Below are positions 6,571 to 64,000 of a stretch of 64,000 bases of DNA, piece after piece. How positions within the stretch are numbered: the stretch's first letter is position 1; each line of letters opens with the position of its first letter. Both the position numbers and the translations under genes were made by a program. Source of the stretch: Geosiphon pyriformis uo1 (Eukaryota; Fungi; Glomeromycota); the NCBI GenBank assembly GCA_016748015.1, contig JAAOMT010000703.1, positions 618,255 to 682,254 on the forward strand, written 5' to 3'. The notes under the pieces are model-generated. The model did no database searches and was not told where the DNA came from. It saw nothing but the letters and a program-made list of their open reading frames with translations.

Positions 6571-6573
6571 TAA

Positions 6574-8956: not shown

Positions 8957-8986
8957 GGACACTTCAATCCAAAAATATAACAAAAG

Positions 8987-22700: not shown

Positions 22701-23164
22701 TGCTTACCCAGACTTCAACAAATGATTTCAACTAGCCACTGATGCTTTACACATAGCATTTGGTGCCATCTTATCACAAGTAGATGAAAATAGGCAAGAA
22801 CAAGTCATCACTTATGCTAATAGAACACTCAAACCAACAGAACTAAAATATGGCTCAACTGAATTAGAAGCTGCCGCAGTTATTTGGGCTTTTAAACATT
22901 TTCAACAATATCTGAAGAATGGAAAAGAATTTGACATAATAATGGACAATATTGGCCTCAAATGGCTTAATAAAAAGAAAACTGAACAAAGTGTCAAACA
23001 GTTTTGATGGAATAACTTCCTAGCAGACTACAGATATATTATACACCACAAACCAAGAAAACTACATACCAATGTTGATAGCCTCTCAAGAATGAGACAA
23101 AATTAATACCAACAACAAATTCCACCACAACTTACCAACCTACCAACAAAATAACCAAACAAGA

Positions 23165-24563: not shown

Positions 24564-24676
24564 TTTTTAATAAAAACACAAAAACAAAAATAGTAAATAA
24601 TTACAAAAAACACCCAAACCCAAAAACAAATAAAAACTCCATATCCAAAAAATAATTTTCTTTATTCTCTCTTTTC

Positions 24677-25384: not shown

Positions 25385-26334
25385 CTATTAATTAGCATGA
25401 AATTACTCTTATAATTCCTATAATTAATTAATATATTAATATCATTTCAAATTATCATTTATTATTTAATTAATTATTACATATCATGATTCAATTAAAA
25501 TAATCTAATTAGTATAACAAAAAGTAGGATGATCAAATTACACAATACTCTGAACTTTGTAACATTCTAAAATTCGCTGAAATTTATAAGAAATTCGCCG
25601 AAATTTATAGAAATTCACCGAAATTATGAATAGTTCAGCAAAATAACTTGTAGTTCATCAAAATGTATCTTTAGTTTGCCAAAATTTGAGCAAAAAGAAA
25701 AAGTGCAAGTTCATAGACTAGTACTACAACAAGTTGTATAAAAGAAAAGCTTTTTTCTTCAAAAAAATGTATCTTACTTTAGATTTATTACTTAGAACCA
25801 TTCCTACACACACAAAAAGAAATAAATATCAAATAATTCAAAAAACCAAATTCTTTAATTATTGCACTTGAAAAATTCTCAAAACTCAACTAACATTTTG
25901 AAATTGATTAACTACCAATTTCAGTAAACTGTTAATGACTCCAAGTCTGAATAGAAAACGTTTCCCTTGATAAAATCCTATTTCTTTTACATTTCTTTTA
26001 TTTTTCTTTCTTTTCTTATTACAATCATTAAGGTAACTTACAGACAAAATTTCTGTAGAAGAGTTAACTTTCACAGCAAAGTAACTACACATTTTTAGTG
26101 AGCTTTTAGATGAGCAATTCTTGAGAAAGAGTTAACATTTACTATAATGTAACTACATAAAGTAACTGGCAAGGAATTGGCCATTCCACTTATAAGCCCA
26201 GCAGTTCAAATTATAGGAGATAATTTGAAAATAAATTCAGTTATTGGAGGTTTAACTACTTCTAGAAAACGTGAATTTGCAACCAACAGATAGTTACAAC
26301 ATTCAAGAAAAGAGACCAAAAACCTTTGGTAACA
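25365..26334 (+). repeat. C2 3' LTR (970 bp)
   Basis: Preceded by PPT gaggagaaga; matches the 5' LTR. Confidence 0.95.
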
Positions 26335-31986: not shown

Positions 31987-32016
31987 AAACATTTCAACCC
32001 AAAAATATAACAAAAG

Positions 32017-33393
32017 ATGAACACACAAAAATACCAACAACTTCAACATTATATAAATACTCAATTGTTCAAGGAGAAATTATCTCAAAAGGAACAAAAC
32101 AATATAAAACAACAATCAAAATATTTTATCAATTATCAAAATATACTCTACTAGAAGAACAGAAAAAATCTAGATCAACCAATTAGAGTAATCACAGAAC
32201 CAGAGAAAGAGACAATATTATTCAACATGTATTCAGATCCAACAGCAGGACATTTTTATAAAAAAGCAACTATAGAAAAAACCAGAAAAAGATATTATTG
32301 GCCATCAATATATCCAGATATTATCTAATATGTTCAAAATTATAATGCTTGTCAAAGAAGAAAAGGAACAAGATCAAGTGAATCATTAAGACCAATCAAA
32401 GTAAGACAACTATTTGATTGCATTAGAATTGACTTAGTCAGACTATTAACAATCACCAGTAAAGGCAACAGATATATTGCAGTAGCCATGAACTATCTCA
32501 CAAAATGGCCAGAAGCAAAAGCCATTCAAAGAGCAGATGCAGAATCTGTTGCCAAATTCGTCCATCAAGATTTGATATGTTGACATGGATGTCCAAAAAA
32601 ACTACTATCAGATCAAGAAACTCATTTTGTAAATAGAACATTAACAGAATTAAGTCAGAGATTTGGGATAAAAAGACCATTATCGTTACCATATCATCCA
32701 CAAACAAATGGACTAGTCAAAAAATTTAATAGAACACTATGTAAAGCAATTGCCAAAATCAGTCAAGAAAACCAAGATGAATGGGATTTGTTTATACTAT
32801 TAGTATTATTTGCTTATTGGACAATAAAACAAGATACTACACAAGCAACACTATTTGAATTGGTATATGGTAGGACAGCAACATTACCAGTTAAGAGAGA
32901 GGTCAGCACATATCCAACTGAACCAATAACAGAAGCTAATTTCCAAGAAACATTGTTGAGAAGAACATATGACCTAATGGAAACACTAGAAAACAGATGA
33001 CGAAAAGCAGCTGATAATATTCAAAAGTCTCAAGAAAAGCAAAAAAAATGACATGATAACTAATTATTAGATAAACCAGTTGAATTCAAGATTGGAGACA
33101 AAGTACTTTTACATCATACCAAAGTAGAAAAACAATGAAGTGAAAATTTTGATTCCAAATGGAATGGACCATTTTACATAGAAGAAATTCTTGAAAATAG
33201 AGCTTATAAACTAAGATAAAACAACAAAACCTTAGCCAAAGCAGCACATAGTGATTAACTCAAACCATATCACCAAATAACATTATCATCTACCAATAAT
33301 ATTTCACAATTAGGAGTACAACAAATACTAGTTCAACCAAATAAGATTTTATGAGATCTGAAACCAATTATAATCATTGAACCAAACATGTAA
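32017..33393 (+). pseudogene. D integrase, separate ORF
   Basis: ATG 30 nt after the ORF1 stop; DDE-region motifs; tail DLKPIIIIE. Confidence 0.87.
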
Positions 33394-34960: not shown

Positions 34961-37900
34961 ATGCTAAAAAGATTGCCCAAGCAATTTACCTATCCTTAAT
35001 CAACATTTCAGGTCTACAATCAGTCAACAACAGAGAACAATTGGGAAAAAGTGAAAGAGGAATGCAAGGTTTTGGTTTAATTGGATGATTTACAGTATCA
35101 GTAAACATAGCTCTTAATACACAGAATAAATCTTACCAGATTCTTCAACTTCCCCAACCAATTACCATTTTATCTTTTGGTGAACATCACGAAATTTACA
35201 CTTGCTCAAAACCCACTACTACCTAACAAATCTTTAAATTCAATGAACAAATCTGTTTAAAGCATAAAATTTTAATCCCAAATGTTTATATTCTCAAAGG
35301 AATGAAAAAATTCCAAGTTATATTCTACAATTCCAATAATTACCCCATTGTTTTATTGAACAAACTAGAGATTAGAATCATACACAGTAACATCTTTCAA
35401 GATAAAAACCCTCAAATTGTCTCTAATTTCATCGAAATTATAAGACATACACTACTTTCAAATTCAAACATCATTTTTACTACTGAAAACTATCACCTGT
35501 TAAAAGAAAAACTCTCTTGAATTAACATAAGTCCCTTAGAACTCCAACAACAAAGACAATTGAAACAACTGATAGCTGAATTTGCAGATATATTTGCAAA
35601 AGACAACAATGACCTTGGAAAAACTAATATTGTTCAACATCAAATTCACACAGAAGATGCTCTACCAAAACAACAACAAGCCTATTGAGTTCTACCTGCT
35701 AACCACCAATTTATCAGAGAAAAGGTCCAAAAAATGCTCAATAATAGATTAATTCAACCATCAAGAAGTTTTTGGGCCTCACCAGTAGTTTTTGTCAAAA
35801 AGAAAAACAGAAAAATCAGATTTTGTGTTGACTATTAACAACTAAACAGTGTCACAATTAGAGATGCCTATCCTCTACCAAGAATTGATGACATATTAGA
35901 TGCTTTAGGAAAAGCCAAGTTTTTCTCAACTTTAGACTTAGAAAGTGGATACTGATAAGTCGAAATGGATCCAAAAGATCAACTCAAAACAGCATTTACC
36001 ACTCAAGGAGAAAACTATAAGTTCAATGTTATGCTTTTTGGACTCTGCAATGCACCAGCAACATTCCAATAACTCATGGATGTTATATATAAAGAACTCT
36101 TATAGCAAATCAGTAATTGTTTATCTTGATGACACTGATGTTTACTCACCAAACTTTGAAGCCCATCTTATTCACCTGTGAGAAGCTTTTCAATGATTAC
36201 GGAAAGCAGGATTAAAGTTAAACATTAAGAAATATTACTTTGGAAAAACAAGCCTAATTTTTCTTGGACACATTGTTAGCAAAAAAAGAGTCAAACCAAA
36301 CCCTAGAACAATCAGTGCTGTCAAGAACTTTCAAACTTCCAAAAATACCATAGAGCTATGAGGATTTGTAAGATTAGCCTTTTGCTATAAAAAATTCATA
36401 AAAAGATTCTCAGAAATTGCCAAACCACTCAACTATCTTACCAACAAAAACGTGCCATATTAATGAACTGAAAAACAACAAAAAGCTTTTAAAACTCTCA
36501 AAACAAAATTGACAACAGCTCCAGTTTTTGCTTATCCAGACTTTAACAAACAGTTTCAACTAGCTACTAATGCTTTACACATAGCTTTTGGTGTCATTCT
36601 ATCACAATTAGATAAAAATGGCCAGAAACAAGTCATTGCCTATGCCAGCAGAACACTCAAGCCAACAGAACTCAAATATGGCTCAACTGAATTAAAAGCT
36701 GCCACAGTCATTTGGGCTCTTAAACATTTTCAACAATATCTGAGGAATGGAAAAGAATTTGATATCATAACTGACAATATTGGCCTTAAATAGCTCAATA
36801 AAAAGAAAACTGAACAAAGTGCCAAACAGTCTTGATGGAATAACTTTCTAGCAGACTACAAATATATTGTATACTACAAACCAGGAAAACTACACACCAA
36901 TGTTAATAGCCTCTCAAGAATAAGACAAAATTAATAATACCAACAAATTCACTACAACTTACCAACCTACTAACAAATAACAAAACAACAATAGATTTCA
37001 GAAATTACAACAATCTTAAAAACTATTTAAAGACTCTTATTATGCCAGAAAATTAGTTTTCAAGTGAAAAACATCGATTACAACACCAATTCAAACAATA
37101 TTTCATACACTATAACAAAATTTATTACAAAAATTGTAGAAATCCAAACCAGACTAATACAGAAAAATGAAAAAGAAACAATCCTATACAACATGCATAC
37201 AGATCTTTCTTTAGCATACTTAAGAAGAGATGGAACAATTCAAAGAACTTTTGAACATTATTTTTGGCCTCACATGCAAAAAGACATTCGAAAATATGTA
37301 GAATCTTGTGATAGTTGTTAAAGAAAAGAAGAAATTCATCTCACAGAACCTTTAAATCCAATCAAAGTTGGACAACCTTTTGACAGAGTTGGAATTGATT
37401 TAGTCAGACCATTATCTATCACAACCCAAGAAAATTGTTATATTGTAATAACAGTAGATTATCTCACCAAATGGCTTGAAGTTAGAGCCATTCAAAGAGC
37501 AAATGCAAAATCAGTAGCAAATTTCATCTATGAAGACATTATTTGTAGACATGGATGCTCAATTAAACTTTTATCTGATTAAAAAACACATTTTATGAAC
37601 AACTTGATACAAAAAATCTGTGAACAATTTAATGTCAAAAGACCTCTATTATTATCTTATTACCCTTAAACAAATGGACTTGTAGAATAGTTCAAAAGAA
37701 CATTGTGTGAATTTTTAGCCAAAGTCTCAACAGACTTTAAGCAGGAATGAGATATCTTTATTCCATTAGTGTTACTAGCATACAGAACACTAAAACAAAA
37801 TACTACAAAACACATACCATTTAATCTTACTTATGGAAGGACAGCAACATTACCAATTAATTTTACAGTGGAAACGTATCCAGTACAACCAATCAATGAA

Positions 37901-39223
37901 GAAAACTTCTAAGAAACACTCCAAAAAAGAGCCTACACTTTCCTTAGTACATTGGAAGGAAAAAGACATATAGCAGCCACTCATATTGAACATTCCCAAG
38001 CCCTACAAAAAGAAAGACATGACAGCAAACTGCCACCAGTTACCAACAAATTTAAAGTTGGAAATAAAGTTCTCTTATACAGAACTAAGGCTGAAAAACA
38101 ATGGAGTGGAAAATTTGAACATAAATGAGATGAACCATTTTATATTCACGAAATTCTAGACAATGGATTATACAAGTTAAGACTTGATGACAAAGTACTA
38201 ACAAAAGTTGCACATGGAGATTGATTGAAACAATTCTGAATCATTAATTCTACAAATTGGTACACATTCCCCTTTAATTGATCCTAAAGATATTCCCCAA
38301 AATTTAGAACCAATAATTATAATAGAACAACAACCAAACTTGAACACTTAATTTAACATTTTTTACAAACTCCTTTAAAATACACAAAACAAATCAAAAA
38401 TAGTAAATAATTAGAAGAAATATTCAAACCCAAAAACAAATAAAAAAACCCTATACCCAAAAATAATTTTTTTTATTCTTTTTCAAATTTTGTTTATTAG
38501 TTAGTCATTTTTATTATGATTATTCCTTGAAACATTCAACAAATATCCCAAAAATTAATGTTAGCTTTGAAAACACTTTCTGACTTATCCATAACGATTA
38601 ATGGAAGTTAAATTAATTACATTCAGAAAAAAACTACAGCAACAGTAGTAAATAATTCTCAGAATTATCACTTCTATAGAAAAAAAACAAAAAGTTCCTC
38701 TGGAAATCAATTACCAGAACTTTTGAAACAAGCACTAAAAGAAAACTTTTTATCTGCCCCTATTAATATTCCACCAAATACCACAATGCAACAAAAACTT
38801 CTACTATTTCTTAATGAACAGAACAATAAACATACTCTTATATATAGATATTTTCATATTGGAAAAACACTTTATGAATGAAAACTAGAACTGGAAACAA
38901 CCAACATTACTCTTGAGGCTATACAAAAACAAATTTACAATGAATTCAAGACAGCAACTGAACCAACAAACACTCATTACAAACTTAGAGCAGCATTTAG
39001 ATTCTATGATTTATTGAACACTTGTGAAAACATCCTACAAAACCCAATACTTTATCCAATGAAGATTCAATATATTAGAAAGCTTACAGAACTGAAATTT
39101 CAACAATTTTCAGATCAGACCACTTCAATTATCTTGGACCATTATTTTAACATCACAGATAGTGCTTGGACTTTGATGGAGCTCAGTCTGGAGGAGGAGA
39201 TTATGTTACCAGTAGAATTTTAA
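34961..39223 (+). pseudogene. C1 3' part: dUTPase end, RT-RH (stop 36934), IN (36991-38351), ORF3 (38516-39223)
   Basis: Collinear with C2 21133-25384. Confidence 0.9.
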
Positions 39224-40162
39224 CTATTAATTAGCATGAAATTACCTTCATAATTCCTATTATTAATTAGCATATATTATTATTATTTCGATTATTACTT
39301 ATTATTTAATCTAATTATCAAATATTATTACTCAATTAATAATCTGATTTGTACTCTAAAAATTAAGATAATCAAATTACACAATACCCTGAACCATTTA
39401 ACATAGTCAAAATTCGCCAAAATCAATAAAAATTGGCTGAAATAATCAATAGTTCAGTGAAATAACTTGTAGTTTGCCAAAATGTATCTTTAGTTCACCC
39501 AAATTATAGCAAAAAGAAAAGTGCAAGTTCAAAGACTAGTACTACAACAAGTTGTATAAAAGAAGAACTTCTCTTTTTAAGAAAATGTATCTTCTCATAG
39601 TATTTTAATATAGTATCTTACTTTAGATATCTTAATTAAAACAAATCATCTTTTACATATTTCAAATAAAAATTAAATATTCGAAAAACAAATCTTTTGA
39701 TTATTACATTTAAAATTCCCTTAACACAACTAACATTTTGAAATTGATTAGCTACCAATTTCAATAAACTGTTAGTGACTCCAGGCCTGGATAGAAAACG
39801 TTTCCCTTAACAGAATTCTATTTTTTTTATTTTTTTTTTATTTTTTTTTTATTTTCTTGTTACAATCATTAAGGTAGTCTACAGACAAGATTCCTGTAGA
39901 AAATTTGACTTTTACAGCAAAGTAACTACACATTTTAGTGAGCTTCCAGACAAGCAATTCCTGGGAAAAAGTTGACATTTACTACATAAAGTAACTGGCA
40001 AGGAATTGGCCATTTCACTTATAAGCCCAGCAGTTCAAATTATAGAAAATAATTTAAAGATAAATTCAGTTACTGGAGGTCCAACTTTTTCCTAAGAACG
40101 TAAATTCACAGCAAATCAACATTAACAACATTCAAAAAAAAAGATCAAAATCTCTGGTAACA
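39204..40162 (+). repeat. C1 3' LTR
   Basis: tgttaccag...ctggtaaca after the PPT. Confidence 0.94.
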
Positions 40163-47698: not shown

Positions 47699-48593
47699 TG
47701 TTATCAAAAGTTTTTGGTTTTTTTTGAATGTTGTTAATGTCTTGTTTGTTATAAATTCATGTTTTCTGAAAGTAGTTAAACCTCCAATAACTGAATTTAT
47801 CTTTAAATTATCTTTTATAATTTGAACTGCTGGACTTATAAGTACAATAGCCAATTCTGTATTAATTACTTTGTGTAGTTATATTGTAGTAAATATCAAC
47901 TTTTTTTCAGAAATTGCTTATCTGAAAGCTTATTAAAAAGGCATAGTTACTTTGCTGTAAAAATCAACTCTTCTACAGAAATTTTATTTATAGACTATCC
48001 TAATAATTATAATAAGAAAAAAATAAAAAAATAAAAAAAATGTAAAAGAAATAGAATTCTGTCAAGAGAAACGTTTTCTATCCAAGTCTGGAGTTACTAG
48101 CAGATTATTGAAATTGGTAGCTAATCAATTTCAAAATGTTAGTTGTGTTGAGAAAATTCCAAGTGTAATAATTAAGGATTTGGTTTTTAAATATTTAATT
48201 TTTTTTATTGATTTTGTAAAAATATGTAAAAAATGATTTGTTTTAATTAAAATATCTAAAAATAAGATAAAATACTATAATAAGATATATTTTCTTGAAA
48301 AAAAAAGCTTTTCTTTTATACAACTTGTTGTAGTATTAGTTTTTGAACTTGCACTTTTTTCTTTGCTCTAATTTCAGTGAACTAAAGATACATTTCAGCA
48401 AACTACAAGTTATTTCTACAAACTATTAATTATTTCGGCCAATTTTTATCAATTTCGGCGAATTTTAACTATATTAAATGGTTCAGAGTATTGTGTAATT
48501 TAATCATCTTAATTTCTATGATATAAATCAGATTATTAATTGAATGATAATATTTAATAATTTGGTTAAATAATAAGTAATAATAATATATGC

Positions 48594-49580
48594 TGTTACC
48601 AGACAAAATTAGAGATATTATTTAGCATGAAATTATCGTTATAATTCTCATCATTAATTAACATATATTATTGTTTCAAATTATCACTTATTACATTAGC
48701 AAAATGTCCAAATTATCATTTAATTAATAACCCAATTTGTATATGACACAAATGTAACCTAATTGTGATGATCAATCATACAATACCCCGAACTATGTAA
48801 CATTCAAAAAGTTTGCTGAAATTTGTAGAAATTTGCCGAAATAATTGATAGTTCACCAAAATATCTAATAGTTCGTAGAAATAACTTGTAGTTTGCCGAA
48901 ATGTATCTTTAGTTCAGCGAAATTGTAGAAAATAGCAAAGTTCGAGTTCATAAAATAGTGTTACAACAAGTTGTATAAAAAAAAAGTGTTTCTCTTTGAG
49001 AAAATGTATCTTACTTCAGATTAAAAACAATTAGAATAACCCTTTACACCCAAAAGACAAATAAATATCAAATAATTTGAAAAGCCAAATTCTTAAATTA
49101 TTTCCCTTGAAATTAACCAATTCCTACTAACAGTTTGAAATTGACTAGCTACTAATTTCGGTAAACTGTTAAAGCACTTCCAGACCTGGATCCGAAATGA
49201 CTTCCATAAATTATCAGTTTTACTTTTTTTTTTACATTTCTTTTATTCTCTTTCTTTTCTTATTATAAATCATTTAGGTAGCCTACAGACAAGAATTCCT
49301 GTAGAAAAGTTGACTTTCACAGCAAAGTAACTATACATTTTTAGTGAGCTTCCAGATGAGCAATTCCTGGAAAAGAGTTGACGTTTACTACAACATAACT
49401 ATACAAAGTAACTAGCACGGAATTGGCCATTCCACTTATAAACCCAGCAGTTCAAATTATAAGAGATAATTTGAAGATAAATTTAGTTACTGGAGGTTTA
49501 ACCACATCCAGAAAACGAGAATCCACAGCAAACAGACATCAACAACATTTAAGAAAAGAGACCAAAAACCTCTGGTAACA
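48594..49580 (+). repeat. C3 5' LTR
   Basis: tgttacc...ggtaaca; TATA-like gtataaaa near 48973. Confidence 0.96.
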
Positions 49581-49624
49581 TTTGGTGCTCTCCCACAGAA
49601 ACAATACAGCAAAACAACTTCAAA

Positions 49625-52600
49625 GTGGCAACCACACCAGACACAACAACTCTAGAGTATTACCAATCAATTTACACCCACTGCAAGCAAAGATTCAACA
49701 TTCCAGACGGAATTGAAGTTGTCAAGAAATCAGTATACCAATACATTGAAAACCAAATCAACAATTATTTTTTTGGAAATTACAATATCTCAGAAGTTAG
49801 AAGCAACCTTTACAACAATTTAGCACATTATTCACAGTTGAAAACTGAAGACCTTAACAGTGAAACACTTGCCACTTACTTTCAAGAACTAAATTTTAAC
49901 ATTATCAAGTACTGTGAAGAAACATATTCAGTGCAGTTTCAATACTCTATTAATTTTAAATCAGAGACAGAAACAAGCAACAAAGGCAAACAAAAATTGA
50001 AGCAATACTCAAAAACCACCCCAAATACCCTAATACTACCAAAAACAACTGCCAAACACTTACAAACACTTGAACAAAGAACCAGTTCAAAACTTCTATT
50101 TACTATCACACCTTTTTCAGCTTTACTTGCACAAACACAAACACTTAATTTACCCTTGAATTGATTTGCAAGACCAGAAAATTTTACATCACTCAGAAGT
50201 CCCACCAGACAGCAAAAACTCCTTTAAACTAGTTCCAATCTTCTTGATTTTCTAGCTAAAAATCAAAGTGAACACTTTGAGACAACAGCAAACGAAGAAA
50301 ATGACTCTAAAATAACTGAAAAAAAATCAATAGACAGTGAAAACAAAGAAAACAAAATGACAGTATACATTGCAAAAATCCCTGAATTTAATGGAGAAGA
50401 TATTGAGACCAGTTCCCAAGAATGACTCGACCAAGTTACTAAAGCTGAAGATGTAAATGGATGGAATGTTACCAGAATGTTAAGAACAATTTCCTACTTT
50501 CTCAAAGGAACAGCAGGAGAATGTTTTGAAAACTTGGCCACTTCATTCAATGATTGAGACACTTTCAAAGCAGCCTTCTTTAAACAGTTCACCGACAATA
50601 ATATCTCCATCACCCTTCGAAATCATTTTCGCAATATCAAACAAGAACCCTCCAAATCTGTTATGACTTATATTGGGAAATTTAACAAACTTCTCAGACA
50701 AATTTGCCAACTTGAAACTAATGATTATTATTCTGATGCTCAAATCTTGGATCAATTTATCACTGGTTTAAAGGATAAACTGATTAAAAAGGTTCGCCCA
50801 CATGCACCAGAAGATTTAAACTCTGCCATTTAGCATGCAAAGAGATATGAAATGGCCATAGAAGAAGCCAATCGTACAAAACTCGTGAATTTAGCCATTG
50901 GAGAAACCAGCTCAGCAGCTGAAAAAAAAATTGACCAACTTACAAAGAAAGTTGAAAACTATTTCACCAACCAACAACAACAGCAACCCCAAAGATATCA
51001 ACCACCCCAAAGACAGAATCAAAACAACTTCACATCACTTTCTAATAACCAGCCTCAGAGTTGCCATTACTGTGAAATTTCTGGCCACTGGAAAAAAGAT
51101 TGCAGAAAGCTACAATGAAACCAACAAAATAAGAGTAATCAATATTACTCTTTACCACAGTAATTTTATTATCAACTACCACCACCAGCTTACTATTCAC
51201 CAAGACCCCAATATCAAAGTAACTATTATCAGCCTGCCCCACAGCCAATTCAACAGCAATACCAACAACTACCCACACAACATTATCAAGTGCCTGCTCG
51301 AAGATTAATCCTGTAAAATCAATTTACACCACAAAACCAATACCAAGTAAACAACAATAGAATCAATTCAAACAACCAATTAGTTTCCCAAAATCCAGCT
51401 CAGCCAAGACCCACTTATTATCATACTCAACCTAGCTATTTTACAATACCTGAAAAACAGGATTTTCACCATACTGCACTCTCAGAAGGTAGAGTTGCAG
51501 CATGACAACAAAACTCTTCCTATATTCTTACCACAATCTCACCAGCCAGAATTGCTGAAAACACCAATCTTTCAGACATATTTTCTTTTAAGTTTGAAGC
51601 AAATGAGTCACCATTTCTGCTCAGCAATGTGGCCGCCAACAAACAAAAAGCAATCACTGCTATATACACTGAAGCAAAAGTCGAAGGAAAGGCAATTCGC
51701 TTGATCCTAGACAGTGGATCTGCTGAAAGCATCATTACCTACCAGTTAATGCAACAGTTAAAGAGAAATGTTGACTGACCAGCTCAAACAGTAATTGTTA
51801 CTGCCAATGGCATCAAAAAGACTCCAGTAGGAGAAATTGACAATTTTCTGTTTACTCTTGATAGAATCACCATTTCAGTCAAAGTTCTTGTAATAGATGC
51901 GCCCCAGTACTAAGCTCTCATCGGAAATGATTGGCTTCAAAAAGCCAATGCTAATCTGAATTGGGAGATACAAGAGTTAACAATCTCCTACCAAGGACAA
52001 CATGCCCGGGTACCTGCCACTTGTAGTACATTCAACAAATATTCCAAAAAAGCCCCGGCTTTTGAATTTGAACTGGAAGAAGAACAGCCCATCATTGAAA
52101 CATTTGTGGCACTTGGATCAACCTCCAATTGGGCCGATGAAACTAAACAACAGTACTTTTCAACAAATGATTTTCTTGAAACAGAAGAACCAGTAACAAC
52201 TGGATGGAATGTCTCCTATTCAAAACCAGAACCACGAAAACAACGCCCCTACATTCCACTCAAATGCAAAGACTGCCACAAGAAACTCTCTTCAATGGAA
52301 GCCTGCATTTCACCTGAAAAAGAATATGAAAATCATACTTGTTATTACTGCAAGGCTTGTCATAAAGAATGATAGGGCCATCTAATAAAAAGAAGCAGAA
52401 AATGGGATAACACCCCTTGTTTGACTTGTGGAGATATGCTACTAGAAGAATGCAATTGGATTGATTTAGCAATGAAAGGAGGAGTCTGCGATCAGACCTG
52501 CCAATATGCTTTATCAATTTCAGAAAAAGTAAAAAGAGGAACACTCTTTGATGCAGTATACAACAGTGCTCTCAACAAACTGTACTATTATCCTCATGAT

Positions 52601-55257
52601 GCCGAAATGATTTTCGACCTAGCAATGGCTTTAATTAACAGAGCCACTCAAGAAAATGTTCGTCAAATGAAAGAATCAGAATACATTGCATACACTTTTG
52701 AAATCGCTGGATACAACTACAAAGATGAAATAGAAGTATATTATCAAATTGCCAGTCACACTTATCTGACCAAAGAAGCTCAAGCTCAATGGCTAGAGCA
52801 AATAAACGTTAAATTGTGTAAAGAATGCATAATGCCCTGCGATAAGCAATGGTGCTCTGAATGCTATGCTCTTAGCATTTTTCTGTCCAGTGAAAATGAT
52901 GAAAGCGAAATTGAATTTGGAGAACCTGAAGCAACAGAAGAAATTGAAACAACACCCATCTATTTTATTAAAAGTCAGTCTGCCTTACAACTCAAATACT
53001 TTAACAACAATAGACAAGGAATAAAACCTGAAAAAGCACATGAAATTGATGCTGGATATGACCTAAGATATCCAGACAAGAATACTCTTGTTCTCAAACC
53101 CAAATCTCTCACAAAAATCAACCTCAAAATTGCACTCAAAATCTCGCCAGGAGCAATGGTTCAAATCGCCTCCCGGTCCTCTCTGGCAAGCAAAGGAATC
53201 AATGTCAGAAGAGGAATAATCGATTCTGGATATACGGGAGACATTACAGTAATGCTTCAAAATGAAACTGACAAACCATTCAAGATCGACCATGCTGAAA
53301 AAATTGTCCAAGCTATTTACCTACCCCTAATCAACATTTCGAGTTTGCAACTAGTCAATCAAAGAGAACAATTAAGAAAAAACAATAGAAGAACCCAAGA
53401 TTTTGGTTCAACTGGACGATTCACAGTTTTAGTTAATATAGCTCTTAACACACAGAATGAATCCTACCAGATTTTCAGATTTCCACAACCAATTACCATC
53501 TCACCCTTTAGAGAACATCCAGAAATTTACACCTGTCCAAAGCCAACAACCACACAACAAATTTTTGAGCCCAATGAACAAATTTGCTTGGAACATAATA
53601 TTTTGATCCCAAACATTTATATTCCAGAAGGAACAAAAAAAGTCTGAGTTACTTTTTACAATACCAACAATTACCCTATAGTTCTATTAAATAACTTAGA
53701 AATTGGAGTCATTTACAGTAACATTTTTCAACAAGAACTACTCTAGACAGTTCCCAATTTTTCGGAAATTATTAGACATTCACTACCAAAAATCAACCCA
53801 AATCCTAGCTCTGAAAACTACCATGTTGTCATAGAAAAACTATTTTGAATCAACATAGGACAACTTGAACCACAACAACAAAACCAGCTCAAAGAGCTAA
53901 TTGTAGAATTTGCCAATATCTTTGCCAAAAACAACAATAACTTAGAAAGAACCAATTTGGTCCAACACAAAATTTACACAGGAGATGCCAAACCAAGAAG
54001 ACAACAAGCATATCGAGTTGCTCCAGAAAGCCACCAATTTATTCATGAAAAAGTACAACGAATGCTTAACAATGAGCTTATCCAACTCTTTATGAGTCCT
54101 TGGGCTTTACCTGTAGTACTAGTTAAAAAAAAAATGGAAAGATATAATTTTGTGTTGACTATTAACAACTCAACAGTATTACAATTGGAGATGCCTACCC
54201 CCTTCCCTAAATTGATGACATGTTAGATGCCCTTGGAAAATCTAAATACTTTTCAACACTAGATTTAGAAAGCAGTTACTGGCAAGTTGCTATAGATCCC
54301 AAAGATCGCCCCAAAACAGCATTAACCACTTAAGGTGGATATTATGAGTTCAATGTAATGCCCTTCAGATTATGCAATGCACCAGCAACGTTTCAGAGAT
54401 TAATGGATGTTGTATATCAAAGGCTTCTTTGGAAGTCAGTAGTCGTTTATCTTGATGATACTGATGTTTATTCTTCATTGTTTAAATTATACTTAAAACA
54501 CCTACGAGAAGTTTTTCAATAATTATGAAAAGCAGGACTAAAACTCAACATCGAAAAATGCTACTTTGGAAAAACAAGCTTGGCCTTTCTTGGTCATATT
54601 GTTAGTAAAGATGGAATCAAACCGGACCCTGGAAAAATTAGCACTGTTAAAAACTTTAAAACTCCTCAAAACACTACAGAACTAAGAGGATTTATAGAGT
54701 TAGCCTCCTATTATTGGAAGTTTATCAAAGGATTTTCAGAAATTGCAAAACCTCTCAACCAGCTTACCACCAAAAATGTCGAATACAAATGGACTGCTGA
54801 ATGCCAAAATGTATTTGAAATCCTCAAAGAAAAACTAATGACAGCTCCAATTCTCGCCTACTCAGATTTCAGCAACTGATTCCGATTAACAACAGATGCC
54901 TCTTATATTGCCTTTGGTGTCATCTTATCACAATTAGATAACAACAAAAATGAGCGAGTAATCACTTATGCTAGCAGAACATTAAAACCAGTCAAGAAAA
55001 ACTATTCTGCCACAGAACTAGAAACAGCAGCCATAATCTGAGTTCTACACCACTTCAACCTTTATCTTAGGCCTAAAGAATTCGATATTATTACTGATAA
55101 TATTGGACTCAAATGGCTTCAGAACAAAAATACTCAGCTAAACGCAAAACAAACCTAATGGACAAGATTTCTAGCAAACTATCGATACATAGTACATCAC
55201 AAACCAGGAAAACTCCACATCAATGTTGATTGTCTCTCCAAAATAAGACAAGATTAG
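49625..55257 (+). pseudogene. C3 Gag-CCHC-PR-Cys-dUTPase-RT-RNaseH
   Basis: Fragments at 49625, 50852, 52106, 52421 and 53957 share one frame; CHYCEISGHWKKDC, LILDSGSA, AGYDL/ASRSSL/IIDSGYTGDI/FGSTG, YLDD; one frameshift at the A-run near 54130. Confidence 0.94.
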
Positions 55258-55308
55258 AAAACACAAAAACCAACACTCAACTTAACCAACCAAAACAGCC
55301 AACAAACA

Positions 55309-56694
55309 ATGAATTCGAAAAACTACAACAATCTCAAACAATATTTGGAAATATTAACAATCCCAACAGATTGGTCTCCAGATAAAAAACATCGACTACA
55401 ACAACAAGCCAAACAATATTTTCTACACAACAACATTATTTATCATCGAAATTTCAAAAACCCAGACAAACCACTCAGATTAATACAAGAACAGGAAAAA
55501 GAGACTATATTATACAACATACACTCAGATCTTTTATTAGCACACTTTGGAAAAAACAGCACCATCCAAAGAACACTAGAATACTACTTTTGGCCTCGAA
55601 TGAGAAAAAACATTCATGAATATGTCGAATCTTATGATAGTTGTCAAAGAAGAGGAGGAACACGCCCTACTGAATCATTAAATCCAATCAAAGTTGGACA
55701 ACCCTTCGACTGAGTTGATATTAATTTAGTCGGACCACTATCTATCACCACTTAAGGAAACCGTTATATTGCAGTAGCTGTAGACTATCTTATTAAATGG
55801 CCCAAAGCCAGAGCCATTCAATGAGCAGATGCGAAATTAGTAGCAAATTTCATCTATGAAAACATCATTTGTAGACATAGATGTCCAATTGAACTTTTAT
55901 CTGATCAGAGAACACACTTTGTAAACAACCTGATATAAGAAATTTGCGAATGATTCAATGTCAAAAGACCTCTGTCTTTGCCCTATTATCCACAAACAAA
56001 CAGACTTGTAGAATGTTTTAACAGAACATTGTGTGAGTTATTAGCCAAAGTCTCAACCGATTTTGAGCAAGAATGAGATATCTTTATTCTATCAGTGTTA
56101 CTAGCATATAGAACACTAAAACAAGATACCACAAAACACATATCATTTGATTTAACTTATGGAAGGACAGCAACATTACCAATTAGTTTTACAGTGGAAA
56201 CATACCCAACACAACCAATCGATAAAAACAATTTCCAGAAAACACTACAACGAAGAGCTTACACTCTGCTTAGTACATTGGAAGGAAAATGATGAATAGC
56301 AGCAACTTATATTAAACATTCTCAAGCTCAACAAAAAAAAAGACATGACAACAAATTACCACCTATTACCAATGAATTTAAAGTTGGAAATAAAGTTCTC
56401 TTACACAGAACTAAAGCTGAAAAACAATGGAGTAGAAAATTTGAAAATAAATGGGATGGACCATTCTTTATTCATGAAATTCTAGACAATGGATCATATA
56501 AGCTAAGATTTGATGACAAAATCCTAGCAAAAGTTGCATATGGAGATCATTTGAAACACTATAATTCCAGAAACAATTCTGAACCATTAATTCCACAAAT
56601 TGGCACACATACCCCTTTAATCAATCCCGAAGATATTCCCTGGAATTTAGAACCAATAGTTGTTATTGAACAATTTCCCAACTTAAACACTTAA
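55309..56694 (+). pseudogene. C3 integrase, separate ORF
   Basis: ATG 51 nt after TAG; MNSKNYNNLKQYL.., HSD...H, WDGPF, NLEPIVVIE. Confidence 0.92.
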
Positions 56695-56816
56695 TTTAAA
56701 TTTATTATTATAGTTATCTTCTTATAATTTAGAAACAATCTTACAAAAACAAAACAAAAATAACATAAAAACTCATACACCAAAAATAATTTTCTTTTAT
56801 TTTCAAATCTTTTATA

Positions 56817-57533
56817 ATGACTATTCCTCAAAACATTTAACAATTATCCCAAAAACTAATGTTAGCTTTAAAAACAATATCCGAATTATCTATTACTGTT
56901 ACTGAAAACCACATTAATTATATCCAAACAAAAGTAGTCACAAATTTAGCCCCAAATTCACGAAAATATCACCCATATAAGAAGAACACAAGAAGTTATT
57001 CTGGAATTCACCTGCCAGAACTTTTAAAGCTTGCTTTAAGAGAAAACTTAATGCTCACTCCTATTAGTATTCCACCAAATGCTACTATTTAACAAAAACT
57101 TCAACTGTGTTTTAATAAAGAAAACTATGACTATACTCCAATATATAGATATTTCTACATTGGAAAAACACTTCATGAACAAAAATGGGAGCTTACAGTA
57201 GCAAACCTCACAAAAGAAGCTATTCGGAAACAACTCCACAATAAATTCAAGACAACAACTAGACCTACAAACAGTCATTATAAATTAAGAGCTGCTCTTA
57301 GACTTTATGACCTATTTCACTGTAAAAACGTTCTACAAAACCCAATTTTACAACCTTTGAAGATTCAATACATTGAAAAGCTTACAAAACTGAAATTTCA
57401 ACAATTTTTAGACCAAATCTCTTCAATAATTTTGGATTATTATCTGGAAATTACAGACAGTACTTGGACTTCGACAGAGCTCAGTCTTGAGGAGGAGGTT
57501 ATGTTACCAAACAAAATTAGAGATATTATTTAG
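56817..57533 (+). pseudogene. C3 ORF3, unknown function
   Basis: Homologous to C1/C2 ORF3; ends inside the LTR. Confidence 0.8.
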
Positions 57534-58489
57534 CATGAAATTATTGTTATAATTCCCATCATTAATTAACATATATTATTGTTTCAAATTATCACTTATT
57601 ACATTAGCAAAATGTTCGAAATTATCATTTAATTAATAACCCAATTTGTATATAACACAAATGTAACCTAATTGCAATGATCAATCATGCAATACCCCGA
57701 ACTATGTAACATTCAAAAAGTTTGCCAAAATTTGTAGAAATTTGCCAAAATAATTGATAGTTCACTGAAATATTTAATAGTTCACAGAAATAACTTGTAG
57801 TTTGCTGAAATATATCTTTAGTTCAGCAAAATTGTAGAAAATAGCAAAGTTCGAGTTTATAGAATAGTATTACAACAAGTTGTATAAAAGAAAAACTTCT
57901 CTCTTTGAGAAAATGTATCTTACTTCAGATTAAAAACAATTAGAATAACCCTTTACACCCAAAAGACAAATAAATATCAAATAATTTGAAAAGCCAAATT
58001 CTTAAATTATTTCCCTTGAAATTAACCAATTCCTACTAACAGTTTGAAATTGACTAGCTACCAATTTCGGTAAACTGTTAAAGCACTTCCAAACCTGGAT
58101 CTGAAACAATTTCTATAAATCATCAGTTTTACTTTTTCTTTTACATTTCTTTTATTCTCTTTCTTTTCTTATTATAAATCATTTGGGTAGCTTACAGACG
58201 AGAATTCCTGTAGAAGAGTTGACTTTCACAGCAAAGTAACTATACATTTTTAGTAAGCTTCTAAATAAGCAATTCCTGGGAAAGAGTTGACATTTACTAC
58301 AACGTAACTATACAAAGTAACTGGCATGGAATTGGCCATTCCACTTATAAGCCCAACAGTTCAAATTATAGGAGATAATTTGAAGATAAATTCAGTTACT
58401 GAAGGTTCAACCACATTCAGAAAACAGGAATCCACAGCAAACAGACATCAACAACATTTAAGAAAAGAGACCAAAAACCTCCAGTAACA
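57502..58489 (+). repeat. C3 3' LTR
   Basis: Matches the 5' LTR. Confidence 0.96.
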
Positions 58490-58559
58490 ATGCTAATTAA
58501 TAATAGAAATTATGAAGATAATTTTATGCTAATTAATAGCTAAAATTCTACTAATAACA

Positions 58560-59820
58560 GCATTAAAAGCTATATTTACTGAAACTGTAAATTGTTCAGT
58601 TGAACCAAAACCTTGAGTTTCTCTTTCACTTTTCCCTAATTGTTCTTTGTTATTAATTAATTGTAAACTCAAAATGTTGATTAGAGGTAGATAAATAGTT
58701 TAAGCAATTTTTTCAGCATGTTCTATTCTGTATGGTTTTTTGGTTTCATTTTGTAATATGATGATAATATCTCCTATATATCCTGCATCTATAATTTTTC
58801 CTCTAACATTGATTCTTTTGCTTGCCAATAATAATTAGAAAGCAATTTGTACCATTGGTTTTAATGGTATTTTAAGAGCAATTCTGAGATTGATTTTGGT
58901 AAGAAATTTTGGTTAAAAAATCAAGGTATCTTTGCCAGGATATTGTAGAATATATTTTGCACCAATTTTATAAGCTTTTTCAGACTTGATTTTTTGACTA
59001 TTGTTGTCGAAATATTTGGGTTGTAGGGCAGGTTAATTCTCAATAAGATAAATTAGAGTTGTTGTAATTTCTTTTTCTGGCTTATGCTCTTCAAACTCAA
59101 TTTTTTTTTGGTTATTTTTACTAGGCAAGGAAGTGCTAAAAACATAACATTCTGAACATTATTTATTATTACAAAACATGATGTATTTTTTACACAATTG
59201 AATGTTTATTTGCTCTAATTATTAAATTTGAGCTTATTGGGTTGGATAAGTGTAACTTGCAATTTGGTAATATGTTTCTACTTTATCTTCATAGTTGAAT
59301 CTAGCTAATTCTATAGTGTATTCAATGTATTCAGTTTTTTTCATTTGGTAGACATTTTTTTGTATGGCTCTATTGATTAAAGCCATTGCTAAGTCAAAAA
59401 TTATTTGAGCATCATAAGAGTAATAGTAGAATTTGTTAAAAGCACTGTTGTATGTTGCATCAAAGGGTGTTCTTCTTTTGATTTTTTTCGAAATTGATAG
59501 GGCATATTGTCAAGTTTGATCATATATTCCTCTTCTCATTACAATATTAATTCAGTTGTATTCTTCTAATAACATATTTTTACATATAATACAAGGAGTG
59601 TTGTCCTATTTTCCACTTTGTTTAGAGTATTCAAATCGTTTTCTATAGTATGTTTTACAGTAATAACAAGTGTGTGTTTTATATTCTTCTTTTGAGAATA
59701 TATATGCTCTTATTGACAAAAGTTTTTTCTTGCAATCTTTATATTTAAGTGAGATATAAGATAGTTGTTTCCATAATTTTGGTGTAAAGTATTGAACAAT
59801 ATTCTATTTTCTGGTTTTTT
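58560..59820 (-). pseudogene. C4 internal fragment (Cys-rich domain plus dUTPase), antisense
   Basis: Reverse complement matches C2 about 20040-21290 (QGFGSTEQFTVSVNIAFN, IDAGYIGDI). Confidence 0.88.
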
Positions 59821-62640
59821 TATATTGCATCCAAATCTGAAAGCTTTCTAGACACAACAAATTTATTTAAAAACATAGCAGCATTGGCTGTCATAGTATC
59901 TTTAAACTCACACTACTTCATTTTATTAGTGTTTTTGATATCAAACTTCCAACAATTCCTATTAGTCTGTTTGTGCAGCAAATTCAGTCACACATCTAAC
60001 AATTTATCCAAACTCACAAATACAGAAACAGCTTTGTAATTAGTATCAAAATAATCCTCAACATCAGCCACACTATGACCTACTATCATATTGACCAAGT
60101 TTAAAAAAACAAACACATAATCAATTGTTTTAGCAACACTTTAAGAATTGTTCCACATAGGCATTTTTGTAAATAAGCTCTCACCCAAAAAATTGACTAA
60201 ACCCAAATCAAGGCACTTTTTAAAACTGGCACACTTATGAAAACTATCTTCATTAAAATTACCACTTAAGATGACAAAAGAAAATTTATTCACAGCTTTG
60301 GCAATCAAAGAGTTAATATTATTTACTTGAAAAAAATAAACTACTAAGGACACCCCAGTATAAAACCCCAAAATCGACACAGAAAGTTTGTTTTTAAAAA
60401 GTAATTTGATAGAAAGAAGTCAGTTAGGAATGTCCAATACTCTATACACATGCTTTACCAAAGAATTGTTTATGATAATTACAATGTTAGAACTCAGATA
60501 ACCAGAATTCAAACCAAAAGTAAAAATATGGACATCTTCAAACTTGTTCACAATTCATGGATAGATTTTGTCTCTTAACTTAGTTTTAGTAACAATAGAA
60601 ATCAAATTGTCCATATCTCTATGCCAACATATTATATCATCTTGTTTTGCAGGATTGTTTATTTCTCTGATATTACACATAACAATTTTCTAAACTAGAC
60701 TGGTCATTAAGAAAAATGTTGAAAAAACACACTATTTGCAAGAACCAAACCATCAAACTGAGCTGATAAACTGAACACTAAGACTAAAAGACCCTCCAAC
60801 ATGGTTTTTAATTTGACAATGACAGAAGTAATTGGATCTGAGAATATGGCAGTCTTATTACAAGTAATATTACTCAAGTCCTCTTTTATCACTATATTAC
60901 CTACTTAATCTTGTAATGAAAAAATTATCAGCAGCTAACATCCAAGATTAGACTGAAAAACTGCCAGCACAAGTGATTCCAACCTCTTAGCCAACTCACT
61001 AATTTGTTTCACAAGGCTGGTAAAACTACTCTCAATACTAACCAAATGTAATTTCAAATCACCCATAACAGGCAGAAAAAGTTTCATCTTTGAAAAAGAA
61101 CCAGATTTAGCCAAAACATTACCCATAGGAAAAAAAGAGAAAAAAGACTCACCAACAACTTTTATCTAAGAAACACCATTAAAAGAAACAAGACAAACTA
61201 CTGGTGCCAAACATTTGGTATAAGTGGTAGCCAACCTGTTTTTATCTGTATCTGAAAAGATCTAACATGGAAAAATACCAGAAAGAGGCTTTCTATTAGC
61301 TGTATAGCCCAAAGATATATAACTAGAGTTCCTATACTTAACACACTTAACAGGAACTAAATAAGACCAGTACAAGTTGGTGTACTTTAAAACTGGTATA
61401 GTTTCTATGACAATATCTAATAACTTAGCCGAGTCACAGCAAACAGTAGTACATCTGGCTCAAGTATATGAAACCAGATAACAATTAATAACACATGTTT
61501 TACCACTTACAGAACCAATAAAATTCCATATGTCATAAGCATTTGTTTCCACAGGCAGAGTATACAACAATGTCTTATGTTGATCCTTTTTGTTTCAAGA
61601 TTCTTTGTCCAAATCCAATCTAACAACATGAACTGTATCTTTTTTGATCAGAATGGACCACTTTGCTGTGACCAAATCAGCATAATTTGATTGCTTAAAT
61701 TCAACTATAGTCTTCTGCCAAAGTTCTACCAACTGTATTTTAATTAAATTAATTATTCCAAACTCAGACAGTACAGCATACACAGTCTTAGCCAATATTT
61801 TAACAGGAATTTTCTTAATCACTACAGTCTGATTTGAATGACCAATGAATTTTTTAAGATTGGTGTTAACTAAAATATTTACAGCTCTTGTCTTTTCTGT
61901 GGCCTGTGCCAAACTCAATTCAGAAGTAAAAGAGACACAGATAATCTTAACAAATTTTAAGAGAATAGAGATTTCTCTAAAACTATTAACTTTTGAAAAC
62001 AATTTTTTAACAATCACAAGCTTCTCTTGAGATGTTTTCTCAACAACTTTATTTAAACCAATATCCAGAGCAAATAATTTCCTAACAGACACATTAACCA
62101 GATTTTGTAGCAGAAGAGAAAGAATCATAGGAGCATTCAAAAAAATGTTATTATTATTAACATCATCTAAAAAATTAATCTTCTCTAACAGTATATCCAG
62201 AGTCTTTTTTATTACCAATCTTGGACTTTTTGGCATCTGATTGGAATCACTCTTATTGAACAAACTTCTTTTACTATAGTTTATACTGGTCTTCTTTACA
62301 AGACACTTTTCTTTTATATCAACACTATTAGATTTGGTAGTATCATCTGTTTTAAACTTCCAAGAGCCATCAACTGCTGTTTTAGACAAGACTATTTCAT
62401 GAACAATACCATCTTTCAAAACACCACTTTTTCTCTTTTTTCTAGAAACAATATCTTTTTCATTACTATTAATACCAGAGTCTTTAACAGACTTCTTCAT
62501 TACAGCAATACTACAGCCAATAGTGGCCTTGTAATCAAGCAAAAAAAATTTGGATTTATGATACTGAATTGTAGAAACTTTTTCAAAAAACTTTTTAACT
62601 CTTTTTTGAGAATTTTGAATGAAGAAGAGAAAGAAGTTTT
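59821..62640 (-). mobile_element. Non-LTR (LINE-like) retrotransposon, 3'-truncated: ORF1 plus APE endonuclease part of ORF2
   Basis: ORF1 fragments 62542 to 60707 with a degenerate zinc knuckle near 61340; ORF2 from 60707 with CNIR..N, ILSGNFNE (GDFN), TIDYVF and DTNY (SDH-like); no RT seen. Confidence 0.82.
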
Positions 62641-62847
62641 TTAATTTTATTATTATTTTAACTATAATTAATCTTAGCTAATTTAAAAATTTTAATAAAT
62701 ATAATAGTTTTTTATAAAAAATTAAAATAAATAGAACATATTTTTTAAAATATTGTTTTTAAGATCTTAAATAAATTAATTTAAAATTTATAATATTTTG
62801 TATTAATAACTTTGATTAATAATAAAACCCTTTGTCTCCTTAATTTT

Positions 62848-64000
62848 ATGATCATAACTAGAATAAAGAGTAAAAAAACTGTACCTGATATCTTTCTTAA
62901 GATATTTTATAAAATTTCAACCAGAAAAGCTCTCTCTGTTGTAGAAGCAATTAAGCAGAATGTTTTAAAAGCCTTCCCTTTACTTAGTAATCATGAAAAG
63001 CTGCCTTTGGTAGCTACTAAAGCAACTTTTTCATCTTTGGCTGGTTTTTTACTAGTCAAAGTTTCTTTAAAAAGACACACTTGGGTTAGTTCTAGTGTTG
63101 TCTTTATCCCAACTAAGAGCCCAAAAGTTTTTAATAATAAATCTGTAAACAAGCTGGTCTTCCTTTTTCTTGCTTCAACACCTAGTGCTACTAATACTAC
63201 TTCTTCAAAAAATATGGTCAAAAAGACCAAAAGTTTAGGAAAGTGAGAACAGTTGCTTGCCTCTGCTATTGTTACACTGAATCTTTTTATGATTTCCAAT
63301 AAGATCTTAGATAAGATCTCTATAGCATTATTTGGCACATTATTTAAGATGGGCCAAAATTAACTACTGGCTGTATTGCCTAATATGGTGTCTTTTGATA
63401 GATTATTGCCAGTTTTAGAAGCAAAACAATCATCTCTTGTGATGTTATTTGTTCTTAAGAATAGGGCTGACCAAATAGAAACTAAATCATCTCCTCCTTT
63501 GGTTTTTGGTGCTGTTACTAGTGGTGCTTGGGAAACTATTACTAGTTGTCAAAAGTTTGCTGGATGGATGGTCTCTATTCTGGTGCCTGGTGCTATTTTT
63601 AAGATTAAATTGGCTTATGTTAAAGCTGTTTTTCAGTTAGTACATGTTTTCTTGAGTGCAAAGTCAGTATTAAAAGACAATATAAAGCTGTTTTGTATGG
63701 AGTTTGCTTCTTAAGTGTCTTTGGAAGCTGTATTTTTGGTTGAACTTACAAGCTCTGTATATTTGGCCACCCTCAAAATTGCCAAGTCTTTGGTAATTTC
63801 TGAGTTTGGTTCCTCTTTTGCTGCTGTTGTGCTGCATGATGTGCCTTTAAGTGTGTTTGCTACTGATATTAAAACAGCTCTTAGTGTGTTTGGTGGTGTT
63901 ATTTATGTTGTGCTGAAGTCTGCTGGCATTTGACAGTATGTAATGGTTTATTTTAAGAAGTTGGACTTTGCTGTATCTGCTTTGAGTTATTGGTTAGTCT
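62848..64000 (+). mobile_element. Second LINE-like element, ORF1 5' part (runs off window)
   Basis: In-frame fragments 62812, 63376 and 63715; LHDVPL...ALSVFG..V..V.F resembles the IKKIPV...VLSEFG..IVEF (RRM-like) block of the opposite ORF1; T/G-rich sense strand. Confidence 0.65.

Follow-up and report, generated by a model that had tools for sequence, protein, structure and literature searches.

A free-standing integrase frame between RNase H and a third open reading frame in Ty3/gypsy-type retroelements of Geosiphon pyriformis and other hosts

Long terminal repeat (LTR) retroelements are thought to bring their integrase into the particle as a part of Pol, and an integrase contained in the Pol polyprotein is a canonical trait of Ty3/gypsy elements (Metaviridae), a group that includes the single open reading frame (ORF) element Tf1. 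Here we analyze 64,000 nucleotides (nt) from the glomeromycote fungus Geosiphon pyriformis uo1 (assembly GCA_016748015.1, contig JAAOMT010000703.1, forward-strand positions 618,255 to 682,254; hereafter the window) and the element C3 within it (48594-58489), where a frame running from Gag to RNase H is followed by an integrase ORF and a third ORF (ORF3). Copies in the window carry the labels A to D of an earlier sequence-based note (the original prediction), which were assigned to them by mapping in the present analysis; coordinates refer to the window and to its forward strand unless stated otherwise.

A single-ORF Gag-Pol has been described for DGLT-A (PMC5911963). As far as the consulted parts of this and the other papers cited here go, C3 and its relatives resemble DGLT-A and Tf1 in their LTRs, primer-binding site (PBS), polypurine tract (PPT), domain order protease-reverse transcriptase (RT)-RNase H-integrase and a Gag and Pol encoded in one ORF without a frameshift; in those elements the integrase is released by cleavage of the polyprotein, whereas the polyprotein of the present group stops at RNase H, the integrase has its own ATG and ORF3 follows. 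dUTPases are reported in the gypsy elements PosPlaTy3-5 of Postia, in Phanerochaete elements and in Tmt1 of Tuber (PMC2864245), in the bdelloid rotifer elements Juno, Vesta and TelKA, which also possess an ORF3 (PMC5408684), and, between protease and RT, in planarian elements (PMC6431247). The dUTPase of C3 is placed between protease and RT, as in the Postia, Phanerochaete, Tuber and rotifer elements, and rotifer elements also share a variable third ORF; in contrast, the described dUTPase gypsy elements have integrase within pol, and in the present group dUTPase is found in only 5 of the 82 listed close relatives defined below. Rotifer ORF3 products are env-like, GDSL or DEDDy proteins as described, none of which is matched by ORF3 of C3. 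Free Gypsy-type integrases are known as Ginger1 transposases, whose origin is considered open (PMC2836005, PMC6839031), and YPYY-type integrases have been reported from Athila/Tat, Cer1, Gypsy-1-I_RO and DGLT-A1 (PMC2836005). The integrase described here resembles these in that it is free-standing, of Gypsy type and roughly 400 residues in length, and combines a short N-terminal module with H2C2, DDE and GPY/F; it differs from Ginger1 in lying inside an LTR element beside an RT, with no inverted repeats, OTU or Ulp1 domain. In the parts consulted, transposon papers on these fungi do not divide gypsy elements below the superfamily (10.1101/2021.03.30.436303, PMC11952901, PMC3248453), and a search of the open-licence literature gave no description of a separate integrase ORF in gypsy elements; an entry in a curated library such as Repbase, GyDB or REXdb may already show one.

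The RNase H stop and the separate integrase frame

In C3 the RNase H domain (54760-55257; RT_RNaseH, E value 9e-16) is closed by a TAG at 55255-55257, followed by an A/C-rich spacer of 51 nt (55258-55308) and by an integrase ORF of 461 codons with its own ATG, HHCC motif, DDE core and GPY/F-type module (55309-56694). As this integrase lies in the RNase H frame behind a single TAG, C3 taken alone is no proof of a separate integrase ORF. The proof comes from its neighbors: all six window copies with a visible junction stop at the same codon after RNase H (4543, 8954, 23104, 31984, 36932 and 55255), leaving spacers of 29, 30, 58, 30, 56 and 51 nt, respectively. In a sibling family the stop, spacer and integrase ATG span 4543-4577, out of frame; two sibling copies have a stop, a spacer and an integrase ATG at 8954-8989 and 31984-32019, and two more, both out of frame, lead to a decayed start (23104-23167 and 36932-36993). 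Integrase starts in the window read Met-Asn, with two of them decayed to ATA. Alignment of five copies over 347 RT-RNase H columns provides a control, in which a stop occurs in one copy at 11 columns, in two copies at 5 and in three copies at 1, and the terminal RNase H column is the sole one with a stop in all five. Decay does not account for this stop.

The same boundary is seen in relatives outside the window. A protein search with the intact RT-RNase H stretch of the first copy, covering proteins of 609-2000 residues and listing the best 120 matches, yielded 82 close relatives with an RT-RNase H identity of at least 50% that reach the RNase H end. Among these, 51 proteins end within 8 residues of the RNase H end and 5 at 9-30 residues, while 22 continue into a longer tail other than integrase and 4 into an integrase. 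In DNA of other hosts the succession of stop, spacer and ATG was found on contigs L007, L012, L094 and L100, and probably also on L095. Over 11 junctions the spacers measure 4 nt (L012) to 117 nt, six are out of frame with both other phases represented, and position -3 of the integrase start is an A in every case. The spacers of the window contain 73-93% A+C, two of them without any G; those of other families are T-rich or a mere 4 nt long.

On the integrase side, a search with the C3 integrase among proteins of 253-807 residues (120 matches listed) returned 83 homologues whose first residue is the aligned Met and 97 that begin within 12 residues of it, with none starting more than 6 residues before it. 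A complementary search for longer integrase forms (749-2135 residues, 120 listed) contained six proteins of at least 44% identity. Five annotated fungal gene models fuse the integrase with upstream domains. In three of these, 18-57 residues spanning the junction are missing, the end of RNase H among them; a fourth retains part of an RT and the fifth none, the pattern to be expected if an intron had been called over the stop. As regards the RNase H stop, the original prediction that copies A, B, C1, C2 and D share one plan held wherever the junction is visible, and its separate integrase ORF is borne out by the other window copies and by the relatives, though not by C3 itself.

The split layout reaches far beyond the window, as the relatives and the trees attest, in agreement with the predicted distinct lineage of Gag-RNase H, integrase and ORF3. 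Among the matches listed, the nearest are Geosiphon pyriformis gene models (75% for an integrase piece; 8 of 10 ORF3 matches looked up). Close homologues with a named source belong to Rhizophagus irregularis, R. clarus, Entrophospora candida and Cetraspora pellucida, all Glomeromycota; most of the intact relatives are metagenome proteins. A metagenome scan with generic RT patterns placed 6 of 80 kept contigs in the lineage (L004, L007, L009, L012, L024 and L033), the rest being mostly unrelated gypsy elements, and scans of viral contigs returned no member. The contigs L094, L095, L096 and L100 are filed under four prokaryotic genomes, including that of a Gigaspora endobacterium, which probably reflects binning contamination.

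A FastTree phylogeny of 241 RT-RNase H rows contains a group of 104 (support 89) that holds 72 of the 73 proteins stopping at RNase H, 28 of the 34 tailed ones and 4 fused ones, and an IQ-TREE analysis of 73 of these rows gave similar moderate support (89). Constraining the 36 split rows to be monophyletic produced a tree 45 log-likelihood units better than the free one, with a P value of 0.865 in the approximately unbiased test, a result that is compatible with a single origin of the split rows without proving it. In a tree of 84 integrase rows, a single clade with a Shimodaira-Hasegawa-like approximate likelihood ratio test (SH-aLRT) value of 96 takes in every one of the 37 free integrases together with one fused protein (P0114); among the members of the next group are a sea-urchin integrase-peptidase protein and two Tanacetum elements that possess a second RNase H (SH-aLRT 95, long branches). 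All these trees were built without named reference clades. Several observations tell against a clean and exclusive split. P0114, an ORF-caller protein, is a true fusion in which 2 residues link RNase H to integrase; it branches within the free integrases, paired with P0164 (SH-aLRT 99), and looks like a secondary re-fusion. The size limits of the RT-RNase H search (609-2000 residues) and of the search for longer integrase forms (749-2135 residues) could let very long fusions escape; clade support in the RT-RNase H trees is only moderate (89), with 4-6 fused rows in or beside the clade; and free integrases were picked by similarity to the query, so that their clustering is partly by construction. 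Taking both sides together, we have very little doubt that the three-ORF layout is real and old.

With regard to known groups, the elements have the attributes of Ty3/gypsy, namely direct TG...CA LTRs, a target-site duplication (TSD), PBS and PPT, the order protease-RT-RNase H-integrase, an RVT_1-type RT and an HHCC-DDE-GPY/F integrase, and their RT-RNase H falls inside a set of gypsy-type Pol fusions from animal, plant and metagenome sources in trees without a Copia, BEL or retrovirus outgroup. A canonical attribute they lack is an integrase within the Pol polyprotein. An assignment to the chromoviruses, including the basidiomycete dUTPase families, was rejected since a chromodomain is absent by Pfam both from the C-terminal integrase piece of C3 and from the domain lists of all 120 listed integrase homologues. 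Gmr1-like elements, in which integrase precedes RT, were dismissed because integrase here follows RNase H and integrase-first elements form a separate branch in the trees; likewise a Ginger1 DNA transposon was discarded, as the integrase of the window copies has RT-RNase H and direct LTRs around it and that of L094 has RNase H, ORF3 and an LTR. An N-terminal module ahead of the integrase zinc finger occupies the position that the YPYY motif takes in the YPYY group (Athila/Tat) and in Ginger1, and in the integrase tree the two long-branched Tanacetum elements fall nearby, in an alignment without named Ginger1, Athila or Tat references; an affinity to these groups is no more than a possibility.

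Expression of the integrase and of Gag

We consider reinitiation after the Gag-Pol stop the best account of how the integrase would be made, at a probability of roughly one half. Under this reading, ribosomes that terminate at the stop of the Gag-protease-RT-RNase H ORF would resume translation of the same genomic RNA between a few and roughly 100 bases further on and so produce the integrase; restart would yield less integrase than Gag-Pol and could thereby replace the usual gag/pol frameshift for enzyme dosing. Whatever the route of expression, a free integrase would have to join the particle or the cDNA. Stop-restart translation is known from LINE-1 ORF2, SART1, the capsid protein/RNA-dependent RNA polymerase pair of victoriviruses and calicivirus VP2, mostly with overlapping stop and start codons. 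The present junctions are similar in that a second cistron begins shortly after the stop of a long first ORF, and differ in that none of those systems is an LTR element and that codon overlap occurs in 0 of 11 junctions here. In foamy viruses the whole of Pol is made apart from Gag by splicing and packaged in trans, and the glyco-Gag of murine leukemia virus (MLV) is a longer Gag from an upstream non-AUG start; an enzyme apart from Gag and a longer Gag isoform would be the features shared with these retroviruses, except that foamy virus splits off all of Pol and not integrase alone.

Several alternative routes are narrowed by the junctions themselves. Plain scanning from the 5' end could not reach the integrase, given that RNase H has a normal number of ATGs, without depletion in any of four copies. 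A stop that is read through or bypassed by frameshifting to give a low-level Pol-integrase fusion, or that is itself a decay artefact, would find comfort in the in-frame position of C3 and four more of the 11 junctions, in the fused P0114 and in the five gene models joining integrase to upstream domains. It would have to coexist with six out-of-frame spacers in both other phases, with the Met conserved in 83 of the 120 listed integrases, with a stop that is present in intact ORFs too and with the missing junction residues or partial or absent RT of all five gene models. We regard it as very improbable, and the variable frame together with the conserved Met excludes readthrough or frameshifting as a general rule. 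Internal ribosome entry on an unstructured A/C-rich spacer, independent of upstream translation, has a precedent in the A-rich internal entry that occurs in yeast, and the 73-93% A+C of the window spacers would suit it; since other families have T-rich spacers or one of just 4 nt, we consider such entry unlikely.

Production of integrase and ORF3 from their own subgenomic RNAs, by splicing or from an internal promoter at the RNase H end or in the spacer, would leave the layout unchanged and is a real, if tentative, possibility. It is favored by the long A/T-rich spacers of up to 117 nt and by the uniform A at -3, as for scanning on a short leader, to which the integrase-ORF3 spacers of 122-131 nt, T- or A-rich, may be added; spliced messages are described as typical for the ORF3s of LTR elements (PMC5408684). 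Conversely, the spacers have no conserved AG, the two that lack G can hold no splice acceptor, and the L012 spacer measures a mere 4 nt; moreover, ATGs lie 16-162 nt before the integrase start in all 11 junctions, which means that a subgenomic RNA must begin very near that start. Restart is favored by spacers as short as 4 nt and by the absence of any conserved acceptor site for splicing. Reinitiation has its own difficulties: three spacers of 94-117 nt are A/T-rich and suit an internal promoter or spliced RNA at least equally well, two spacers (L007 and L100) contain an extra ATG, and, besides the absence of overlapping codons, only 1 of the 11 starts falls within 18 nt of the stop.

A second candidate for translational control lies at the 5' end of the long frame, where C3 has an N-terminal Gag extension (49625-50356) of about 244 in-frame codons before the capsid ATG, with coding-type divergence. 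It lacks an in-frame ATG and opens with a GTG flanked by A(-3) and G(+4); a GTG in this context heads the extension in three of the four window copies showing the region. In 15 intact relatives with an extension of at least 140 residues (140-290 residues; for example P0034, P0051, P0054 and P0064), Met occurs 5 times in 3037 residues, and a single spliced gene model accounts for four of these; the Met frequency in the remainder of the proteins would predict about 49, and that in the linker after the zinc knuckle 52. On L094, 540 nt at 3511-4053 of that contig contain no ATG in any frame, compared to 5.7 expected. Leaky scanning is the simplest reading of a nearly Met-free extension: scanning past a weak first start, GUG in the window families, to the capsid AUG would give a long and a short Gag-Pol isoform, and the GTG at 49625 is the likely start of the long one. 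This suggestion is tempered by the 15 proteins being related and not independent, by Met in the extensions of L100 and gene model P0243, and by the decayed window copies, whose ATG counts are low, with P < 0.05 in only two of four. The near Met-free Gag extension is a new observation of the present analysis.

Structure of C3, ORF3 and the variable cargo

C3 is structurally complete as an LTR retrotransposon of Ty3/gypsy type, but the copy is dead. It is bounded by identical 4-bp TSDs (ATGC, 48590-48593 and 58490-58493) and by TG...CA LTRs of 987 nt (48594-49580) and 988 nt (57502-58489) that match each other at 93.8%. A PBS-like site with its TGG 2 nt past the LTR occupies 49583-49594, its motif recurring at 10942 and 15074; no tRNA genes were found in the 64-kb window. 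The Pfam order is Retrotrans_gag, zf-CCHC, aspartyl protease, dUTPase, RVT_1, RT_RNaseH and Integrase_H2C2. The capsid domain begins at the first in-frame ATG (50357-50900; Retrotrans_gag, E 2e-10), and is followed by a CCHC zinc knuckle (51059-51109; zf-CCHC, E 0.0014) and an aspartic protease with a DSG motif (51620-52040; Asp_protease_2, E 0.001), both under the curated cut-off with the motif visible, and, beyond the Cys-rich and dUTPase domains considered below, by an RT interrupted by stops and a frameshift (53849-54759; RVT_1, E 6e-8 on a stop-free piece). A conserved hexamer and the PPT (57489-57498) together span 57477-57498.

The completeness originally attributed to C3 therefore extends to its LTRs, TSD, PBS-like site, PPT and domains and not to its coding capacity, which is broken by 34 premature stops (16 + 8 in Gag-Pol, 8 in the integrase and 2 in ORF3) and one frameshift, located in an A-run at 54125-54134 in the RT part of Gag-Pol. 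Owing to that frameshift the single frame predicted from Gag to RNase H is not seen in C3 itself; it is realized in the copy at 1-4545, unbroken from capsid to the RNase H stop, and in intact relatives, where gag, zinc knuckle, protease, RT and RNase H all reside in one protein. The predicted lack of relationship between U3 regions likewise applies to more distant families, with no match between the C3 LTR and those at 6568-7441 and from 34096, and fails for three sibling elements, which match the C3 LTR at 72-78% over all or nearly all of its length. Within the C3 LTR pair, 928 of 985 aligned bases are identical and 55 of the 57 differences are transitions; these are C-to-T type changes found mostly at CpA (26), CpT (14) and CpG (11), so that decay is not confined to CpG. 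The hexamer lies 5-8 nt 5' of the PPT in the window (6547, 25340, 34067, 39179 and 57477) and on L094 just before position 3064 of that contig; it is common to families with unrelated LTRs, and its partial complementarity to the PBS region is compatible with a possible role in pairing or priming.

ORF3 (56817-57533) follows the integrase after an A/T-rich spacer of 122 nt (56695-56816) and encodes 238 codons of a predicted soluble, mostly helical protein, running across the PPT into the 3' LTR. The anticipated third ORF before the PPT is thus present, and its divergence is of coding type in all three pairwise comparisons, with codon positions changing in the order third > first > second. ORF3s of different window families are homologous, scoring 49-76 bits against a leave-out profile. 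A further 33 homologues were found among 1.84 billion representatives, two of which are intact metagenome proteins with an identity of about 25%. L094 carries integrase, ORF3, PPT, LTR, PBS and Gag in order, with integrase and ORF3 free of stops; its ORF3 is shorter and occupies the same place, and reaches 10.8 bits with a wider profile, above 500 of 500 shuffles (best 7.5), whereas hhalign gave no link to the C-family ORF3 (E 0.11), which together suggest, weakly, homology to the window ORF3s.

Six of six ORF3 proteins lack a transmembrane segment (highest 19-residue hydropathy 0.68-1.29), and there was no match to Pfam env domains, the sole Pfam match being DUF1016_N in one of the six (E 0.037). 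The predicted model of ORF3 has a mean predicted local distance difference test score of 55, with about 85 for a core at residues 79-175, and Foldseek comparison with the PDB and BFVD returned nothing at E ≤ 0.001. The best match of the model in VIA has a Z score of 5.6, and several helix-turn-helix DNA-binding domains score 4-5, which is chance level for helical models; in an Atlas placement a closterovirus coat cluster and a Mucoromycota cluster scored equally (0.92), with low recognition. An env or membrane fusion protein was rejected on the absence of a hydrophobic segment, of Pfam env domains and of a convincing fold match, and with it an errantivirus or env-bearing element. Having neither transmembrane segment nor viral fold match, ORF3 gives no foundation to the "virus-like" character attributed to the lineage, and appears to be a soluble accessory protein, possibly nucleic-acid binding, with DUF1016_N as a mere lead to such binding.

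Further domains vary between families. In C3 a Cys-rich domain (52250-52900) precedes the dUTPase (52985-53419; Pfam dUTPase, E 1.8e-19; PDB dUTPases to E 6e-12), and the stretch after the dUTPase does not align to dUTPase. The dUTPase of one of the five listed relatives that carry it (P0083) is placed after RNase H, and none was found in the part of L094 examined. The Cys-rich domain has no Pfam match at E < 0.05 and a predicted template modeling score of 0.33, and is present in six window copies and, outside the window, in only four fetched proteins, all from the ORF3 search. Neither domain can therefore serve as a marker of the lineage, contrary to the original prediction of a dUTPase-bearing group with a Cys domain. 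One sub-family has a NUDIX domain after RNase H (L033 1247-1510, Pfam E 4e-10, and L009), a second nucleotide-sanitising cargo besides dUTPase. The post-RNase H tails of 22 of the 82 listed relatives are acidic, partly Cys/His-rich and mostly 220-390 residues long (for example P0051, P0054, P0064, P0065, P0080, P0081, P0099 and L094 2-1146), and those scanned gave no Pfam match. dUTPase, Cys-rich domain, acidic tails and NUDIX form family-specific cargo.

The window as a whole is a stack of nested insertions (6568-7441, 9971-40162, 15648-26334 and 18969-19768). The copy at 15648-26334 is enclosed by an LTR pair at 9973-10939 and 39206-40162, and carries in its protease an inserted LTR resembling that at 6568-7441. 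Directly beside C3, inverted sequence is present on both sides, a Cys-dUTPase fragment and a sibling LTR (58490-59812 and 47700-48584, both on the minus strand). A different decayed element on the minus strand (61595-63714) contains an open frame of 360 codons with no Pfam match, and sequence akin to it is fused into the ORF3-containing gene models P0437 and P0438.

Implications for the elements and their hosts

A separately made integrase in a large clade implies that another way is needed to make, dose and package the enzyme. The elements may represent an old, undescribed clade, abundant in Glomeromycota and under translational control throughout, with two Gag-Pol isoforms, a restart-made integrase recruited in trans and a conserved soluble ORF3; in this full form we put the proposal forward only tentatively. 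If it is true, DNA transposons of the Ginger1 type could have an intermediate of this sort, an element with a free integrase, at their origin. The natural short junctions offer test material for reinitiation after a very long ORF in fungi, and the split layout explains many stand-alone "integrase" gene models and spliced-looking fusions in these genomes. Finally, LTR elements make up 41.2% of the Geosiphon genome and are described at superfamily level in the consulted part of that report (PMC11952901), a load to which a split lineage would give structure.

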